Source of the DNA: an uncultured Candidatus Binatia bacterium
GTDB lineage: Bacteria > Desulfobacterota > Binatia > HRBIN30
Assembly: GCA_964534275.1 (NCBI GenBank)
Contig: CAZHQG010000007.1
Location: 27,202 to 91,201 of the forward strand
DNA: 64,000 nt
Reading direction: 5' to 3'
Under the pieces are notes generated by a model that was given only the letters and a program-made list of their open reading frames with translations, made no database searches and was not told the origin of the DNA. A program made the position numbers and the translations under genes. Shown in pieces: positions 37,789 to 47,724 of the stretch (the stretch's first letter is position 1; every line of letters begins with the position of its first letter).

Positions 37789-41421
<3,633 letters not shown>

Positions 41422-41606
41422 GGTTGTTGCGAGCCTCGCTCGTCTCACCTCTATGCGCCATGGCTACCGGCCGCAAGTTCTCGCCTGTGCGGCACGGGAA
41501 CCGGCGCTGCTGCGCGCGTCGGATTTTGCAAATGCCAGCGCAATTGGCATTGTTCCACGGTAGCAGCTCTCCCTCGCTCCTGCACCCGCTAGCAACGGTG
41601 GTCGTG

Positions 41607-42428
41607 CTAGCGCTCCAGTCGGACTGCCGATTCCACAGGTTGCCCGAGAAACAAGGAGCCTACCTTTATAAAGCGCTCGGGTGCGTCGGTGACGAAAAAG
41701 CTCAGGGTACCGCCGTTGTCCTTGCGCGCCAGCTTTTGCTGGCGGAGCAGCGCTCGTACGGCCTGAGCGGTGGTGCCGGCAGAGTCCACTAAAGTGACCG
41801 TAGGCCCGAGGACTTCGGCAATGACCCCGGCCAGCAATGGGTAGTGTGTGCAGCCAAGCACCAGGGTGTCGATCCCGCTGCGGCGCAAGCTTGCCAGGTA
41901 CCGCCGCGCGGCAGCTCGCGCCACGTCGTTTTCGGTCCACCCTTCCTCGGCCAGCGGGACGAACAACGGGCATGCACGCGTGTAAATCTCCAGGTCGGGG
42001 CGCAGTGCTTTCAGCGCGCGAGTGTAGGCGTTGCTGGCGATGGTCGCTTCGGTGCCGATCACTCCGACTTTGCCATTGCGGGTGGCTCGTACTGCTGCTT
42101 GTGCTCCCGGCTCGATCACCCCAATGACGGGCACGGGCAGTTGCTGTTCGAGCTCTGGTAGGGCCACGGCGGAAACGCTGTTGCACGCAACCACCAAACA
42201 CTTGATGCCTTTGTCGAGCAAAAACGCAGCATTTTCTTGGGCGTAACGGCAAATGGTCTCGGGAGACTTCGTGCCGTACGGGGTGCGTGCAGTATCCCCA
42301 AGGTACACGATGTCTTCGTGGGGCAGCAGCCGTGCCAGTGCACGGACCACGGTGAGGCCACCGATGCCGGAATCGAAGACCCCGATAGCCGCCGACGCGG
42401 GGGGTCGTGAGGCGCGTTGTTGCCTCAT
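41607..42428 (-). CDS. murI: Glutamate racemase
   Basis: IGVFDSGIGGLTV, YGTKS, VACNSVS, LVLGCTHYP. Confidence 0.96.
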   Translation of the reverse strand: MRQQRASRPPASAAIGVFDSGIGGLTVVRALARLLPHEDIVYLGDTARTPYGTKSPETICRYAQENAAFLLDKGIKCLVVACNSVSAVALPELEQQLPVPVIGVIEPGAQAAVRATRNGKVGVIGTEATIASNAYTRALKALRPDLEIYTRACPLFVPLAEEGWTENDVARAAARRYLASLRRSGIDTLVLGCTHYPLLAGVIAEVLGPTVTLVDSAGTTAQAVRALLRQQKLARKDNGGTLSFFVTDAPERFIKVGSLFLGQPVESAVRLER

Positions 42429-43504
42429 TTGGGCGTACCGACGAGTCGTGCTGCGACTTCTTGATCCGTCGGCACTTCTCCAAAGGTTTTCTCCCACACT
42501 CCCGCCGGCTCCATGCAAATGTATCGGGGAATCGCCGGGTCCCACCGGCGCAGCCATTCGAGAAGCGTGCGGTACATCGTCAGCCGTAGGCCACGCCAAG
42601 CGCGGTGTTTTCCGTCTGGACCAGCAACGAGTTCTCCGGTCATCAAAGTCCAGCCACGACTGCGTTCCTTCATTGCGCGCTTCAAGCCTGGGCTGAGTCG
42701 CAAATGGCCAAGGCTCACCCAGGCAACGCGACTTGGATTCACGCGTTCGACCAAGCGGCGAAGCACGGCAACGTACTCCTCTTCCCACTGCGGCAGGGCA
42801 ATCAGCGGGTCGAAATGAAAGGCTACGCGGAAGCCAGCTTGCTGCACCCGCTCGGCAGCCGCCAAACGTTCGTCCAGAGACGCAGTTCCGGGCTCCTCGT
42901 CGCGAATGACGGACGGGGCGTTGAGCGACCAGGCCACCACAACGTTTTCGACTGGCGCAAAGGCAAGCAACCCTTCCACGGCCGCACTCTTGGTTTTGAG
43001 CTCCAGAACCGCGTTCGGTCGCTCTGCGAAAAACGGCACGAGGATGCGCGTGTGTTCCGTCAGCGCGTCGAGAGCGAGACTATCGATCAGCTCTCCGGTC
43101 CCGATGCGAAAGCGCCTGTTTGGATGGCGACGCAGTACGTCATCCACTTCCGCAAGCGCTTCTTCCACGTTCGTAAACAGGCGCAGGCCCGGGCTGTGCG
43201 CGAGGTACTCCTGCAAAAAGCAGTAGCTGCAGTCGAAGGGGCAGTTGGCGCCCAGATTCACGACGAGGTAGTTGCAGCAAACGAGGCCGGGTGTGCCTGC
43301 AGGACAGTGGTGAAGAAACGATCCGCGATGGCGCATCAGGACAAGTTGCCGTTTCCCCGCGGCGAAACCGAAATGTTCCAGCTTGAGGGGCGGGTCGTAC
43401 GACTGCACCGGCACGTCTTGGTAGGCACGGCGCACGTTCTCCGCGATGCGGGAACGCTCGCTGCCGCGTTCGATCCAGATCTTGTCGGGACGGTACGAAG
43501 TCAC
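42425..43504 (-). CDS. Radical SAM protein, spore photoproduct lyase (SplB)-like
   Basis: CPFDCSYCFLQ (CxxxCxxC) after CP..CC; GTGELIDSL, LELKTKS, WSLN, FHFDP, YICME. Confidence 0.85.
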   Translation of the reverse strand: MTSYRPDKIWIERGSERSRIAENVRRAYQDVPVQSYDPPLKLEHFGFAAGKRQLVLMRHRGSFLHHCPAGTPGLVCCNYLVVNLGANCPFDCSYCFLQEYLAHSPGLRLFTNVEEALAEVDDVLRRHPNRRFRIGTGELIDSLALDALTEHTRILVPFFAERPNAVLELKTKSAAVEGLLAFAPVENVVVAWSLNAPSVIRDEEPGTASLDERLAAAERVQQAGFRVAFHFDPLIALPQWEEEYVAVLRRLVERVNPSRVAWVSLGHLRLSPGLKRAMKERSRGWTLMTGELVAGPDGKHRAWRGLRLTMYRTLLEWLRRWDPAIPRYICMEPAGVWEKTFGEVPTDQEVAARLVGTPK

Positions 43505-44046
43505 GGAACTCCCTCTAGCAAGGCAAACACCTCTTTCCCGGCAGCACTGCGCGCCCACTGGAGGGCGGCTTCTAGCGAGGCGACGAGTTCGGCTTGGCTA
43601 CGGCCTGAGCAGGTGATGGAAATTTGGTCGCCCTCCAGACATGGAGGCAGGGTCACGCGTACCGTTGGCGGGAGACCGGCGCAGCGTACCAGTTCCTTCG
43701 CGCGCGCTTCGGCAGCGCTCAATGCGGGAAATCGCCAGCGACGTAACACCTGTTTCACCGCGACGAGGCGGGTGTTCCGGCTGGTTGCAGCAGACCGTGC
43801 CTGCAAAATCTCCGGCCGGTTCAGAACGCCGGCGATGCTCGTTCCCTCGCGGACGGCAATTTCTTCCGCCCACTCCCACAAATCGCGCAGCTGGTTTTGT
43901 CCCAGCCGGAGGGATGTCGCGAGTTCGTAAAGCGTCCGTGCGTCGGCCTCGTCCAAGCCGAGCCAATGCTCCACCAGAGCGGGGTGAAATGCACGCTCGC
44001 GAGTATAGTCCTGCACGGCTTTTCGGAGACTTGCTGGCAGCGTCAT
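43501..44046 (-). CDS. Hypothetical helical protein (resembles the C-terminal part of ParB-like proteins found beside SplB-like genes)
   Basis: Coupled at both ends by 4-nt overlaps; motif L...RFP.L...E....LPP..RVTLPPCLEG. Confidence 0.6.
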   Translation of the reverse strand: MTLPASLRKAVQDYTRERAFHPALVEHWLGLDEADARTLYELATSLRLGQNQLRDLWEWAEEIAVREGTSIAGVLNRPEILQARSAATSRNTRLVAVKQVLRRWRFPALSAAEARAKELVRCAGLPPTVRVTLPPCLEGDQISITCSGRSQAELVASLEAALQWARSAAGKEVFALLEGVP

Positions 44047-44921
44047 GCTGCTGCCTCTGCTAGCTGGGCCGGCCACCGGGTTGCAACGTACTCACGAGCG
44101 GCGGCAGCAAGCTCGCGGTATCGTTGCGCCTCGTTGTGGCGCCCGCGTTTTTCTGCTCCGGCCGCGAGAACGGCACATTTCGATTCGATCGTGTCGGCGG
44201 TCGCGCGCGCCCGGTGCGCATCCAAGATGTCGGAAAGTAGCAAGCGTAGAAGGCTAGCCACGCGAAAGCGATCCATCCCCCAAAAGCAGCGGGAAAGTTG
44301 GTCTTCGTGACCCCCGCGTTTCAGCACGAGGGCTTCGTCGAGCAAACCGAACTGCTCGTGGACGGCGATGCGCAACCACAGGTCGTAGTCTTCGCAAGCA
44401 GGTAAACTCGGGTCGAACGGCCCGTAGCGATCCCAAACAGAACGATGGAGCAGGACGGCGGATGGGCTGACCAAGCACCGCTGCAACGAGGGGAGGAAAA
44501 TATCGCCGGCGAGTTTGCGGTGAACCGCGCGCGGATTGACGAACCGCCCGTTCCGAATCCATACCTCCTGCGTCTGACTGATGGGTGTACCGGTGGATTC
44601 GGCAAAGGCCAAATGACGTGCGAGTTTGTGCGGACGCCACAGGTCATCCGAATCCAGGAAGGCGAGCCATTCCCCGCGAGCCAGGGCTACCCCGACGTTG
44701 CGGGCCGTGGACACGCCACAGCGTGTTTGCAGGCGCTCGATCCGCACGGCGCAGCCGAAACGGGAGACCAGATCGTCGGCGGTGCCGTCCGTAGAGCCAT
44801 CGTCGACCACGATGAGCTCCCAATCGGTGCGTGCGAGCCCCTGTTGGGCCAGCACCGAGGCAACCGCTTCGGCAACGAGTTGGCGGCGATTGTAGGTAGG
44901 GATGATGACGCTGGCCAGCAC
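44043..44921 (-). CDS. Glycosyltransferase family 2 (GT-A)
   Basis: SVIIPTYNR, IVVDDGSTDGT, GVSTARN.G, AFLDSDD, ACEDYDLWLR, GGHEDQLS. Confidence 0.92.
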   Translation of the reverse strand: MLASVIIPTYNRRQLVAEAVASVLAQQGLARTDWELIVVDDGSTDGTADDLVSRFGCAVRIERLQTRCGVSTARNVGVALARGEWLAFLDSDDLWRPHKLARHLAFAESTGTPISQTQEVWIRNGRFVNPRAVHRKLAGDIFLPSLQRCLVSPSAVLLHRSVWDRYGPFDPSLPACEDYDLWLRIAVHEQFGLLDEALVLKRGGHEDQLSRCFWGMDRFRVASLLRLLLSDILDAHRARATADTIESKCAVLAAGAEKRGRHNEAQRYRELAAAAREYVATRWPAQLAEAAA

Positions 44922-45016: not shown

Positions 45017-45262
45017 TTACACGGGGTGGCGCGCTCCGTGGAGGTTCCAAGGCGCGGTGTCCCCGTGTGCGGGAGCGGGGAGACCGCGAGGCCGCTCTTG
45101 ACGCACGGACTGGGAGCCTCGCCCGAGCAGCCACAAAAGGCCGGCTGCGGCCGCCACGACCGCGATCAGAAGCACCCAGCCAAGTGCGGGTTCTACGAGA
45201 GCCTCGGCCGGGATGTTTGCGGTGGCCATCAAGACCTCGATTGCGACGATGGTGCCGTACAT
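45017..45262 (-). CDS. Small single-pass membrane protein
   Basis: RBS AAAGGAGG upstream of ATG 45262; hydrophobic WVLLIAVVAAAAGLLWLL. Confidence 0.6.
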   Translation of the reverse strand: MYGTIVAIEVLMATANIPAEALVEPALGWVLLIAVVAAAAGLLWLLGRGSQSVRQERPRGLPAPAHGDTAPWNLHGARHPV

Positions 45263-45296: not shown

Positions 45297-45332
45297 AGGA
45301 TAACGCGCTGCAGTAGATTGTCAACGCGCTGC
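45297..45332 (-). promoter_or_regulatory. Sigma70-type promoter overlapped by a 10-bp direct repeat
   Basis: Minus strand TTGACA (45324-45319), 16-bp spacer, TATCCT (45302-45297); AACGCGCTGC at 45302-45311 and 45323-45332. Confidence 0.5.
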
Positions 45333-45412: not shown

Positions 45413-47209
45413 ATGGCGAGAAAGAAACCGGTGGTAACCAACGCGGACGTCGCCCGTGTCTTGCGGGAGATTGCGCTCCTTCTGGAGATGGAAGGCGTGC
45501 CGTTCAAGCCGCGGGCGTACGAAAAAGCTGCGTATGCAGTGGAAAGCCTTTCAGAACCCATCGGGGAGCTGCTCGAGAAAGGCGGCGAGCGGGCGATCGA
45601 GGAGCTTCCAGGAGTAGGGAAGAGTATTGCCGAGAAAATCGTGACCCTGGTGCGCACGGGAAGGCTGCCGTACTACGAAGAATTGCATGCCAAGGTGCCG
45701 GTGGATTTAGCGGGTCTGAGCGCGATCGAGGGGTTGGGTCCGAAAAATATCAAGGTCCTGTACGAGAAGCTGGGCATCCGCACGGTCGAGGAACTGGAAG
45801 CGGCCGCGCGCGCTGGAAAAATTCGCTCGCTTCCGCACTTCGGTGAGAAAAGCGAGCAGAAGATCTTGCGGGGCATTGAGTTTCTCAAGCGGAGCCAAGG
45901 CCGGTTTTTGCTGGGTGCGGTCTTGCCTCTGGTGCGAGAGATCGAGCGGCGGCTAGGGCAAATCCGAGGCGTGGAAAAAGTCGCAATCGCGGGATCGATT
46001 CGCCGGTGCAAGGAAACCGTAGGGGATGGCGATCTGCTCGTAGTGGCTTCGGATCCGGACCGAGTGATGGATGCGTTTGTCTCGATGCCTGAGGTCCAGT
46101 ACGTGCACGGCAAGGGCCATACGAAGTCGAGCGTGAAGCTGCACATGGGGATGGATGTCGACCTTCGCGTGGTGCCGGCGGAAAGTTGGGGTGCGGCGTT
46201 GAGCTATTTCACCGGAAGCAAGGCGCACAACGTAGCGTTGCGTCGGATCGCGATGGAACAAGGGCTGAAACTCAACGAGTACGGGTTGTTTCGCGGCGAG
46301 CGCTCGATTGCCGGGCGAACCGAAGAAGAAGTGTACCATGCGCTCGGAATGGAATGGATTCCTCCGGAGCTGCGCGAAGATGCTGGAGAGATCGAGGCTG
46401 CGCGTGCGGGAACGTTACCGCGGCTTGTCGAGTACGGGCAGGTGCGCGGAGACCTACAAGTGCAGACGAATTGGTCGGATGGTGCGCATTCGATCGAAGA
46501 GATGGCTGAGGCTGCGCGGCGGCTCGGACGGGAATACATCGCCATCACCGATCACACCCGTGCGCTCGCCATGGTGGGGTTGGACGCGAGCAAGCTCCGC
46601 GAGCAAATGGCTTACATCGACCGGTTGAACAGCAAGCTCCGTGGAATTCGCATTCTGAAAGGGGCAGAGGTGAACATCGATCGCGACGGGAGCCTCGACA
46701 TCGACGACGAGACCCTAGCGCAGCTGGACGTCGTCGGCATCGCGGTGCATTCGTACTTCCACCTCCCCCGTGCAGAGCAAACCCGACGCATCGTACGCGC
46801 CATGGAGAATCCGCATGCGGACATCTTGTTTCATCCAACGGGGCGCGCGCTCCTCAAGAGGGAGCCGTACGATGTGGATATGGAGGAGCTGTTTGCCGCA
46901 GCCGTGCGCACCGGTACGGTGATGGAAATCGATGGGTACCCTGAGCGCTTGGACCTCCGCGACGAGCACGTGCGGAAAGCGATCCAAGCCGGCGTGAAAT
47001 TGGTGATCGATACGGACGCCCACAGCATCCACCATTTGGACTATTTGTTTTTCGGCATTGCGACGGCACGGCGTGGTTGGGCGACCGCTGCGGATGTGAT
47101 CAATACCTTGCCGTTGGAGGAGTTTCTGTCGCAGCTCAAGGACAAACGTGGCGCCGGAGTGTCCTCGCCGAAGCGCTCTACGAAAAAACGCCGCTCGGGT
47201 AGCGCGTGA
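45413..47209 (+). CDS. polX: DNA polymerase X with PHP domain
   Basis: FKPRAY.KAA, GVGKSIA, GLGPK, AGSIRR.KETVGDGDLL, VDLRVV, YFTGSKAHN, LNEYGLF; PHP motifs ITDH, HPTGR, TDAH. Confidence 0.95.
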   Translation: MARKKPVVTNADVARVLREIALLLEMEGVPFKPRAYEKAAYAVESLSEPIGELLEKGGERAIEELPGVGKSIAEKIVTLVRTGRLPYYEELHAKVPVDLAGLSAIEGLGPKNIKVLYEKLGIRTVEELEAAARAGKIRSLPHFGEKSEQKILRGIEFLKRSQGRFLLGAVLPLVREIERRLGQIRGVEKVAIAGSIRRCKETVGDGDLLVVASDPDRVMDAFVSMPEVQYVHGKGHTKSSVKLHMGMDVDLRVVPAESWGAALSYFTGSKAHNVALRRIAMEQGLKLNEYGLFRGERSIAGRTEEEVYHALGMEWIPPELREDAGEIEAARAGTLPRLVEYGQVRGDLQVQTNWSDGAHSIEEMAEAARRLGREYIAITDHTRALAMVGLDASKLREQMAYIDRLNSKLRGIRILKGAEVNIDRDGSLDIDDETLAQLDVVGIAVHSYFHLPRAEQTRRIVRAMENPHADILFHPTGRALLKREPYDVDMEELFAAAVRTGTVMEIDGYPERLDLRDEHVRKAIQAGVKLVIDTDAHSIHHLDYLFFGIATARRGWATAADVINTLPLEEFLSQLKDKRGAGVSSPKRSTKKRRSGSA

Positions 47210-47724
47210 AGTGGTGGACCGGTGTGTGCGCATCCAGTATGAACCGGCCCATGGATTGGTTGTGTGGCCTGGCCGCGGAGACGCAAGTGGAAACGCCCGA
47301 CGGCCCGATGGAGATTCGCAAAGTGGCGGGAAAAGAAATTCCAGTGTTCAGTCGCGACGCCAATGGGCGCGTGCGCTTTCGCATGATGCGACAGGTGCGG
47401 TGCACGGGAGCCTCGGAACCGGTGTTACGCGTGTCCTTGGAAAACGGGTGGTCGTTCCGAGCCGTGCCTCGTCAAGGAGTGTTTTTGGCCGAAGGAACGA
47501 TTGTGACGCTGGCTGAGCTTGCTCCCGGTGTATTGCTGTATCCGGCCTTTCACTACCCGAAGGGCTACCGTTTTCGCACGGATGGCGGGGAAGAACGGGA
47601 GTCGGCGCACGGATGGCGCGTGGAATCGATAGAGGCTGGCGGCGACGCGGAGGTGTTTTCCCTGCACGTGCCGCCCGAACGGTGCTTCTTCCTCAGCGCC
47701 GGAGTGCTGTGCTGTAGCGAGTAG
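47206..47724 (+). CDS. Stand-alone Hint (intein-like) domain protein with degenerate splicing motifs
   Basis: CGLAAETQVETPDG (block A-like), VLRVSLENGWSFRAVP (block B-like), RVESIEAGGDAEVFSL.V (block F-like), FFLSAGVLCCSE (block G-like); start could be 47206, 47239 or 47251. Confidence 0.75.
   Translation: MKWWTGVCASSMNRPMDWLCGLAAETQVETPDGPMEIRKVAGKEIPVFSRDANGRVRFRMMRQVRCTGASEPVLRVSLENGWSFRAVPRQGVFLAEGTIVTLAELAPGVLLYPAFHYPKGYRFRTDGGEERESAHGWRVESIEAGGDAEVFSLHVPPERCFFLSAGVLCCSE

Follow-up and report, generated by a model that had tools for sequence, protein, structure and literature searches.

What could hold together a family 2 glycosyltransferase (GT2), a small helical protein without a recognisable family and a radical S-adenosylmethionine (SAM) enzyme resembling spore photoproduct lyase (SPL)? 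The question arises in a hot-spring genome of an uncultured Candidatus Binatia bacterium, in a stretch of 64,000 nucleotides of contig CAZHQG010000007.1 that was analysed as a whole (the window). Four minus-strand genes, encoding the GT2, the 181-residue helical protein, the radical SAM enzyme and the glutamate racemase MurI, follow each other with 4-nt overlaps (Table 1). The initial annotation, made from the DNA letters, had described this chain, and reading the sequence we found the same: ATGA between the GT2 stop codon TGA and the ATG of the 181-residue protein (44046-44043), GTGA between the genes of the 181-residue protein and the enzyme (43504-43501), and ATGA between the radical SAM gene and murI (42428-42425). 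The starts implied by these overlaps differ from those of the longest open reading frames (ORFs) and agree with the N-termini of orthologues in alignments. It was also right that no sporulation genes lie nearby, the neighbours being ArgJ, SecA, PolX, GDPD and a GMC oxidoreductase. We find that the first three genes form a conserved functional unit, outside which murI falls, and that the helical protein descends from ParB-like proteins. As to function, we give about an even chance to the reading that the unit is a DNA-directed radical SAM and glycosyltransferase system yielding a glycosylated base modification, with the ParB-derived protein as the adaptor that docks the enzyme.

To follow synteny, 85 loci fetched from genomes or assemblies were searched with the window proteins by tblastn, and matches to family hidden Markov models (HMMs) were tabulated; another 80 loci were fetched from metagenomes. 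The GT2, the 181-residue protein and the radical SAM enzyme were encoded in this order in 61 of the 71 genome loci with at least 2.5 kb of upstream sequence, and the order was kept in more than 70 independent loci altogether. Most triad-bearing genome loci are labelled Binatia. Outside the Binatia-like loci with a short partner, the order was found in candidate division KSB1 and in metagenome contigs. There it was seen with long, ParB-like forms of the partner, in four metagenome loci (L108, L148, L156 and L161) and in KSB1 (L082). Locus L084 combines a PNP_UDP_1-family gene, the GT2, a ParB-like partner and the enzyme, while in L095 a PNP_UDP_1-family gene, an N-terminally extended enzyme and the GT2 form one overlapping run. 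Pairs of a ParB-like and an SPL-like protein were found in Desulfatiglandales (L077) and Oligoflexia (L081). The GT2/ParB-like/SplB-like neighbourhoods that the initial annotation had mentioned for deltaproteobacteria do exist. The metagenome contigs carrying the partner-enzyme pair, often with the same GT2 orthologue, span G+C contents of 0.30-0.62.

Partner and enzyme genes overlap by 4 nt in 31 of 117 loci, and in 50 of 117 they are separated by 30 nt or less. Taken alone, a 4-nt overlap is common in operons; it is the kept order, together with the partner-enzyme fusions described below, that goes beyond chance. It could still be argued that this is a housekeeping operon of functionally unlinked genes, whose overlaps and order were inherited within one bacterial class. 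Most of the loci are from Binatia, the genes flanking the module are housekeeping genes, and the explanation does hold for murI. However, the partner-enzyme pair, often with the GT2, is found in KSB1, Desulfatiglandales, Oligoflexia and many metagenome contigs, and several architectures join the partner core to the enzyme in one protein. The fusions and the conservation outside Binatia largely refute this explanation, which we regard as very improbable. GT2, partner and radical SAM enzyme are therefore a conserved functional unit, as had been proposed.

The inclusion of MurI in this unit, in contrast, did not stand. Only 29 of 79 genome loci and 11 of 46 metagenome loci have murI directly behind the radical SAM gene. 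All of the loci closest to the window have it in this place, and it is absent beside the long ParB-like forms listed above. Because of these synteny counts we exclude murI from the module and regard it as a co-transcribed housekeeping passenger of this Binatia clade; the adjacency of MurI, SecA and PolX is local synteny. Other genes beside the module (dxr, rseP, ispG, deaD, exbBD and tonB) are housekeeping genes particular to single lineages; dxr, rseP and ispG adjoin it in L136. In other Binatia loci (24-34) a flavin reductase gene (PF01613) directly follows the radical SAM gene, as at L033:2473-2952, and in these loci the gene before the GT2 encodes an EngB-type GTPase. A divergent flavin reductase follows the radical SAM gene in the distant L084 (L084:8966-9655), and none was seen beside the enzyme in the metagenome set. 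The flavin reductase may donate electrons to the enzyme, or its position may be mere synteny. As a general partner it was rejected, being restricted to these Binatia loci and L084.

We also considered anti-phage defence and mobile elements. Searches against PADLOC-DB 2.0 (E<=0.01) gave no match for the GT2, the partner, the enzyme, the long partner or two fusion proteins, and no close homologue was found in phage and plasmid collections, only SPL relatives at 20-29% identity. With only these distant SPLs on phages and plasmids, this explanation was dropped. The module is chromosomal and vertically inherited.

The 181-residue partner matched no Pfam or NCBIfam family, and a Pfam scan of 56 members of its family returned only sub-threshold noise (Pcc1, HTH, HRDC). 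Similarly, no sequence-profile match was obtained in the PDB and no Foldseek match in the PDB or BFVD. An AlphaFold2 model, with a predicted local confidence (pLDDT) of 96.3, consists of ten helices and one beta-hairpin. The origin of the protein was revealed by other lineages, in which its HMM matches the C-terminal 170-180 residues of proteins of 310-356 residues encoded immediately upstream of the radical SAM gene. These long forms carry ParB_N (PF02195; 7.5e-13, 7.3e-10 and 3.8e-6) with GxRR and ENLxxR motifs. Their profile matched Myxococcus xanthus ParB (7O0N) in the PDB at 1.3e-20 and ParB, Noc and Spo0J structures at 1e-20 to 1e-15, over both the N-domain and the DNA-binding domain. 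The ancestry of the 181-residue protein is clear because these longer orthologues carry ParB_N. The window protein lacks the ParB N-domain and begins downstream of the GxRR/ENLxxR region. In the alignment, its residues ~1-88 correspond to the final helices of the DNA-binding region of ParB (the match to ParB itself reaches residues ~52-88), and the recognition-helix segment would precede its start. On this alignment, the Binatia protein appears to be a ParB-like protein minus the nucleotide-binding domain and the recognition-helix part. Public records label the partner as ribonuclease D or hypothetical protein; the former name, which comes from one source, is unsupported.

Several natural fusions join this partner to the enzyme. 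P0271 consists of ParB_N, the whole partner and the enzyme, and P0249 and P0281 of PNP_UDP_1, the partner core and the enzyme. In L085 and some 20 other loci the enzyme has an N-terminal extension of about 100 residues. By hhalign this extension resembles partner residues 47-113 (probability 91.9%, E 7e-7), which hold the RLGxNQ...EIxxRD and LxRxRFP motifs. The fusions are strong evidence that partner and enzyme would work as a complex, in agreement with the adaptor role first suggested for the helical protein.

The enzyme itself reaches 98.2 bits against PF20903 (cut-off 27) and carries the CX3CX2C motif at C88, C92 and C95. A profile of 24 orthologues had a single PDB match, the SPL of Geobacillus thermodenitrificans, at about 1e-31. 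The AlphaFold2 model (pLDDT 83.5) was matched by Foldseek to SPL (4FHC and 4K9R) at about 3e-23, with a template-modelling (TM) score of 0.75-0.81 over 346-352 aligned columns. SPL was the only close match in the structure search, the next fold being lipoyl synthase at 1e-4. The family comprises 538 clusters at 50% identity (E<=1e-30), the members of which are labelled as spore photoproduct lyase or DNA repair photolyase in public records. The initial annotation had doubted that the enzyme is a canonical SPL, and we agree. Against the equivalog model TIGR04070 it scores 101.8 bits where 400 are required (117.6 bits for the fused relative P0249), and it is also far below the cut-off of TIGR03886.

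Residues were compared with SPL through the profile alignment, at ~20% identity. The invariant K172, S193 and R269 align with K174, S195 and R273, the SAM and phosphate ligands of the G. thermodenitrificans SPL (PMC3467042). C67, in the sequence HCPAG, aligns with SPL position 76, and position 76/77 holds the catalytic cysteine, the hydrogen-atom donor, of Clostridium SPL (PMC3467042). A beta-hairpin at 292-302 with invariant K299, R301 and W303 is equivalent to the SPL hairpin proposed to flip out the base (PMC3467042). Other positions have changed. Cys140 of SPL is replaced by an invariant Glu138, and Tyr98 by an invariant Phe96 in the Binatia orthologues, with no residue reaching a majority of 50% in the wider family alignment. 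The dihydrothymine of the photoproduct is read in SPL by Arg193, Glu268 and Tyr339 (PMC3467042). Arg193 corresponds here to Ala/Ser191, Glu268 lies in an insertion without counterpart and Tyr339 is beyond the alignable region. A 6-residue insertion in the enzyme carries a conserved CC motif. All seven cysteines of the window enzyme are invariant in Binatia orthologues, and the extra cysteines C67, C77 and C330, which are kept across the wider family, could be catalytic or ligands of a second cluster. Because of the low TIGR04070 score and the changes at Cys140, Tyr98, Arg193 and Glu268, we assign the enzyme to a sister family of SPL within PF20903 and not to SPL proper.

This residue pattern also bears on the simplest function for such an enzyme, that of a DNA-repair lyase of the SPL type, reversing a spore-photoproduct-like or other cross-linked pyrimidine lesion with a ParB-like scanning helper and with the GT2 as a syntenic bystander. 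The full SPL fold, the SAM ligands, the putative Clostridium-type cysteine and the beta-hairpin are all as expected of a lyase, a ParB-like partner would suit lesion scanning, and the source annotations say the same. PolX is divergently adjacent in the window and in its nearest relatives; this adjacency, however, is confined to the nearest clade. The dihydrothymine-reading Arg193 and Glu268 are not kept, and the loss of thymine-recognising residues disfavours spore photoproduct as the substrate. The scores far below the TIGR04070 and TIGR03886 cut-offs also speak against an SPL-type lyase, and Binatia are not known to sporulate. We therefore think repair of this kind unlikely; the behaviour of the two remaining partners, considered next, also speaks against it.

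The GT2 protein matched PF00535 at 104 bits (cut-off 23.3) and has the DxD motif of GT-A enzymes. Orthologues at 47-68% identity are encoded just upstream of partner and radical SAM enzyme in Binatia, KSB1 (L082) and L084, those of L082 and L084 being 47-50% identical to the window protein, and orthologues also stand beside the long ParB-like partners of L108, L148, L156 and L161. The motifs SxIIPT, DDGS, ARNxG, FLDSDD, ExWxRxG, CEDYD and GGxxDQxS are invariant across lineages. A family HMM scored 1.4e-104 on the module gene against 2e-10 on the only other GT2 of the window. By these sequence criteria, the protein belongs to a specific orthologous group tied to the radical SAM family and is not a generic GT2. 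No NCBIfam equivalog cut-off was reached, the best score being 87 bits for TuaG, where 400 are required. A bystander role cannot explain a GT2 kept at this level across distant lineages. Its tight conservation suggests glycosylation on the same substrate and so modification rather than mere repair.

One GT2 orthologue (L161:6658-7491) had a sub-threshold match to TIGR04440 (49 bits, cut-off 70). This model is described in its library as a TIGR00180 family glycosyltransferase, and TIGR00180 is a ParB partition-protein model. The name may reflect an earlier-noticed link between GT2 and ParB.

A gene of the PNP_UDP_1 family was found upstream in 20 metagenome loci and in L084. Its products show distant likeness to the models of DeoD, AMP nucleosidase, MTA nucleosidase, HpnG and futalosine hydrolase. 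PNP-family gene and GT2 co-occur in L084 and L095 and are hence not alternatives. The PNP or nucleosidase-family gene is thus a frequent further partner of the module. A repair lyase would leave this partner and its fusion to the enzyme unexplained, unless it served to clear 5'-deoxyadenosine.

Some loci have further genes next to the module. In L142 an ATP-dependent sulfur transferase of the LarE type (L142:32-811; TIGR00268, 314 bits) lies just upstream of the PNP-family, ParB-like partner and enzyme genes, and its ORF cluster was found in 7 loci. In two low-G+C loci (L089:3649-8615 and L096:4633-8669) other same-strand genes stand ahead of those for the PNP-family protein and the extended enzyme. 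They encode a radical SAM protein that binds B12, another, small radical SAM protein resembling DUF5131 and an Fe-S protein of DUF362, and in L089 a PAS/HD-GYP-like protein opens the run. The radical SAM gene of a metagenome-assembled genome (MAG) of Nitrospinae (L076:9238-10419) has no detectable partner or GT2 nearby and is followed by a gene for a helix-turn-helix (HTH) and IrrE/M78 peptidase protein, a type linked to DNA-damage regulation in Deinococcus.

How would these proteins act together? The substrate of the module is most likely DNA, and less likely another nucleic acid, because the only structural relative of the enzyme flips a DNA lesion out into a lateral opening and the partner descends from a DNA-clamping ParB. 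The adaptor would dock the enzyme on this substrate. Binatia would have retained only its enzyme-binding C-terminal part; elsewhere, the full ParB-like protein with nucleotide-binding N-domain and HTH region, or a core fused to the enzyme, would serve the same end. The enzyme would cleave SAM at its [4Fe-4S] cluster, and the 5'-deoxyadenosyl radical would attack the flipped-out nucleobase. The substrate radical might then be quenched by Cys67 at the hydrogen-donor position of the Clostridium type. SAM would probably be consumed and not regenerated, because the Tyr98 relay of SPL is absent. Where present, the PNP-family partner could remove 5'-deoxyadenosine or trim an adenosyl adduct, and the neighbouring flavin reductase could supply electrons. 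Finally, the GT2 would glycosylate the precursor or the product of the radical step, so that GT2 and radical SAM enzyme would act in sequence on one substrate, as the initial annotation had suggested.

In a more elaborate scheme, which we think rather unlikely, the product would be a hypermodified base of a new kind, made in chromosomal DNA. A radical, 5'-deoxyadenosyl or another, would be placed on a pyrimidine with Cys67 as the quencher, the PNP-family nucleosidase, where present, would trim off adenine, and the GT2 would glycosylate the resulting appendage. The ParB-like partner would spread the enzyme along DNA, and the modification would serve housekeeping rather than defence in most Binatia and in members of several other phyla.

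Several observations weigh against a DNA-directed modification system. DNA binding by the short Binatia partner itself is doubtful, as its N-domain and HTH recognition region are gone and the median isoelectric point of the short-partner family is 6.1; with the DNA-binding parts lost, the connection to DNA comes through the relatives of the partner and through the SPL fold. The ParB/Srx fold is also found in kinases of small molecules, and two of these, SbnI and SerK, are weak matches of the long-form profile (1e-3). Among named proteins, those closest to the GT2 are glycosyltransferases for polysaccharides and teichuronic acid, and none of them is a DNA glycosyltransferase. There is no PNP-family gene in this window. 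For the enzyme, the residue equivalences come from an alignment at the low identity given above, and the loop of C67 is weakly modelled (pLDDT <50 at 69-75). In one metatranscriptome run of a related study, short pieces with 90-95% likeness matched part of murI, and none fell on the module.

Some of the same observations would be expected if the product were not a nucleic acid at all. The module might then make a nucleoside-derived metabolite, a cofactor or an envelope glycoconjugate, with the ParB/Srx domain as a nucleotide-binding or kinase module instead of a DNA clamp; this would take in the earlier idea of an envelope precursor involving MurI. By analogy with hopanoid synthesis, 5'-deoxyadenosyl might be added onto an alkene, adenine removed by the nucleosidase and the product glycosylated by the GT2. 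The trio of radical SAM enzyme, PNP_UDP_1 protein and GT2 does recur (L084 and L095), and the PNP-family partners weakly match the HpnG, MTA nucleosidase and futalosine hydrolase models. The best named GT2 matches, the SbnI and SerK matches and the loss of the HTH region in Binatia would also fit, as would the adjacency of MurI and SecA in the window and of dxr, rseP and ispG in L136. That adjacency, however, is clade-specific housekeeping synteny, and the conserved set includes no membrane-spanning segment or lipid-carrier enzyme. The only close structural relative of the enzyme is a DNA enzyme, and the hairpin with its basic and aromatic tip is kept. The long partner resembles chromosomal ParB and Noc in both N-domain and DNA-binding domain, with matches at 1e-20 where SbnI and SerK reach 1e-3. 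The evidence favours a nucleic-acid substrate over an envelope precursor, and we consider a non-nucleic-acid product improbable. The preferred reading remains a DNA-directed system making a glycosylated base modification.

The features of the locus are listed in Table 1. MurI was assigned from TIGR00067, which covers its residues 15-257. Downstream of murI, SecA and ArgJ follow on the same strand; upstream of the GT2 lies a small ORF of 81 residues and then the divergent PolX, and GDPD and the GMC oxidoreductase are further neighbours of the chain. The 81-residue ORF is weakly conserved, in the nearest relatives only (L005-L008, L083 and L013), and has no Pfam match. It is possibly the first, lineage-specific gene of the transcription unit. 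A role as precursor of a ribosomally synthesised and post-translationally modified peptide was disfavoured, since the product is hydrophobic and kept in the nearest clade only. The promoter-like sequence in Table 1 was called by consensus match alone, which is no evidence of function.

Table 1. Features of the module and its immediate surroundings, in window positions.
Feature	Position	Strand	Length	Remarks
GT2-family (GT-A) glycosyltransferase	44043..44921	-	292 aa	PF00535 1e-29
ParB-derived adaptor ("helical hypothetical")	43501..44046	-	181 aa	no Pfam/NCBIfam match
SPL-fold radical SAM enzyme	42425..43504	-	359 aa	PF20903 5.8e-28 and PF04055
Glutamate racemase MurI	41607..42428	-	273 aa	TIGR00067 253.3 bits (cut-off 146.65)
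Small ORF between PolX and GT2	45017..45262	-	81 aa	one hydrophobic segment; strong Shine-Dalgarno AAGGAGG
Sigma-70-like promoter match	45297..45324	-		TTGACA, 16 nt, TATCCT; upstream of the 81-aa ORF, in the PolX-divergent region

The locus has its closest relatives in Candidatus Binatia MAGs and in bacterium HR30 (70-75% identity), and the sequencing runs containing the sequence are mostly from hot springs, with some sediment, soil and subsurface metagenomes. Around the module, SecA (37789-41448, minus strand) is unusually long, at ~1210-1219 residues, and its module-adjacent Binatia orthologues have 1201-1211 residues, which looks like a class-wide insertion in SecA. A plus-strand ORF of 172 residues (47206-47724) has no Pfam match and a 4-nt overlap with the PolX stop codon; in L005 a 157-residue gene without family lies next to PolX, but on the strand of PolX itself. 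An ORF of 441 residues (42605-43930, plus strand) runs antisense to the radical SAM and adaptor genes. It was rejected as a gene, as long spurious ORFs are expected at 62% GC.

In full-text searches of the literature on SPL/SplB, ParB, glycosyltransferases, radical SAM enzymes and COG1533, no description of this module was found. Apart from SPL, we know of no enzyme with this fold whose reaction has been established. Our analysis defines a large sister family of SPL in bacteria of several phyla that are not known to form spores, with a fixed set of partners. This set (ParB-derived adaptor, often fused to the enzyme, specific GT2 and PNP-family enzyme) is a concrete handle for experiments, and it corrects the annotation of enzymes now called spore photoproduct lyase or DNA repair photolyase and of partners called ribonuclease D or hypothetical protein. 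If the substrate is DNA, the module would represent new radical chemistry on DNA and, for ParB-like proteins, a second case of recruitment to base modification. It would also be a trait of the uncultured class Binatia, most of whose genome loci recovered here contain it.

Among known systems, SplB/SPL (PF20903; 4FHC) is the closest to the enzyme. The two share the whole-chain fold, the CX3CX2C motif, the C-terminal beta-hairpin, and the three SAM and phosphate ligands; by alignment, the enzyme may also have a cysteine at the Clostridium hydrogen-donor position. In contrast to SPL, the enzyme has Glu in place of Cys140, Phe or a variable residue in place of Tyr98 and neither Arg193 nor Glu268, and it has gained the CC insertion and the extra invariant Cys330. 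It also has obligate ParB-derived, GT2 and PNP-family partners. We know of no such partners for SPL, and the bacteria that carry the enzyme family are not, to our knowledge, spore formers. In the 2013 paper from the Aravind laboratory on SRAP and ImuB-C, the SplB-like context described is a different one, with UDG and DUF4130.

The long partner shares with the CTP-dependent DNA clamps ParB and Noc (PF02195; 7O0N, 7NG0 and 6SDK) the N-domain motifs GxRR (box II) and ENLxxR (box III) and the DNA-binding helices; the window protein has neither the N-domain nor the recognition-helix part. For the C-terminal half of the partner (helices, beta-hairpin, helices) no match was found among solved structures or predicted viral ones, and the partner is linked to the enzyme and not to ParA or parS. 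In ParB the canonical box II motif is GERR; in the long forms its Glu gives way to F, W, H or R.

The same three enzyme classes are found in hopanoid side-chain synthesis, with HpnH as the radical SAM enzyme, HpnG as the PNP-family nucleosidase and HpnI as the GT2. A comparable series of adenosyl addition, adenine removal and glycosylation would occupy every enzyme of the module. However, all scores are far below the Hpn cut-offs, no squalene-hopene cyclase is found in the context, and a ParB-like partner would make no sense for a lipid. We also know of no report of an SPL fold in HpnH.

In Dpd 7-deazaguanine DNA modification, the ParB-like DpdB works with base-modifying enzymes on chromosomal DNA. 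We know of no closer precedent for a ParB-like protein that assists DNA modification. In place of the TGT-like DpdA, the queuosine-precursor genes and the restriction partner of Dpd, the module combines its ParB-derived protein with an SPL-fold radical SAM enzyme, a GT2 and a PNP-family enzyme.

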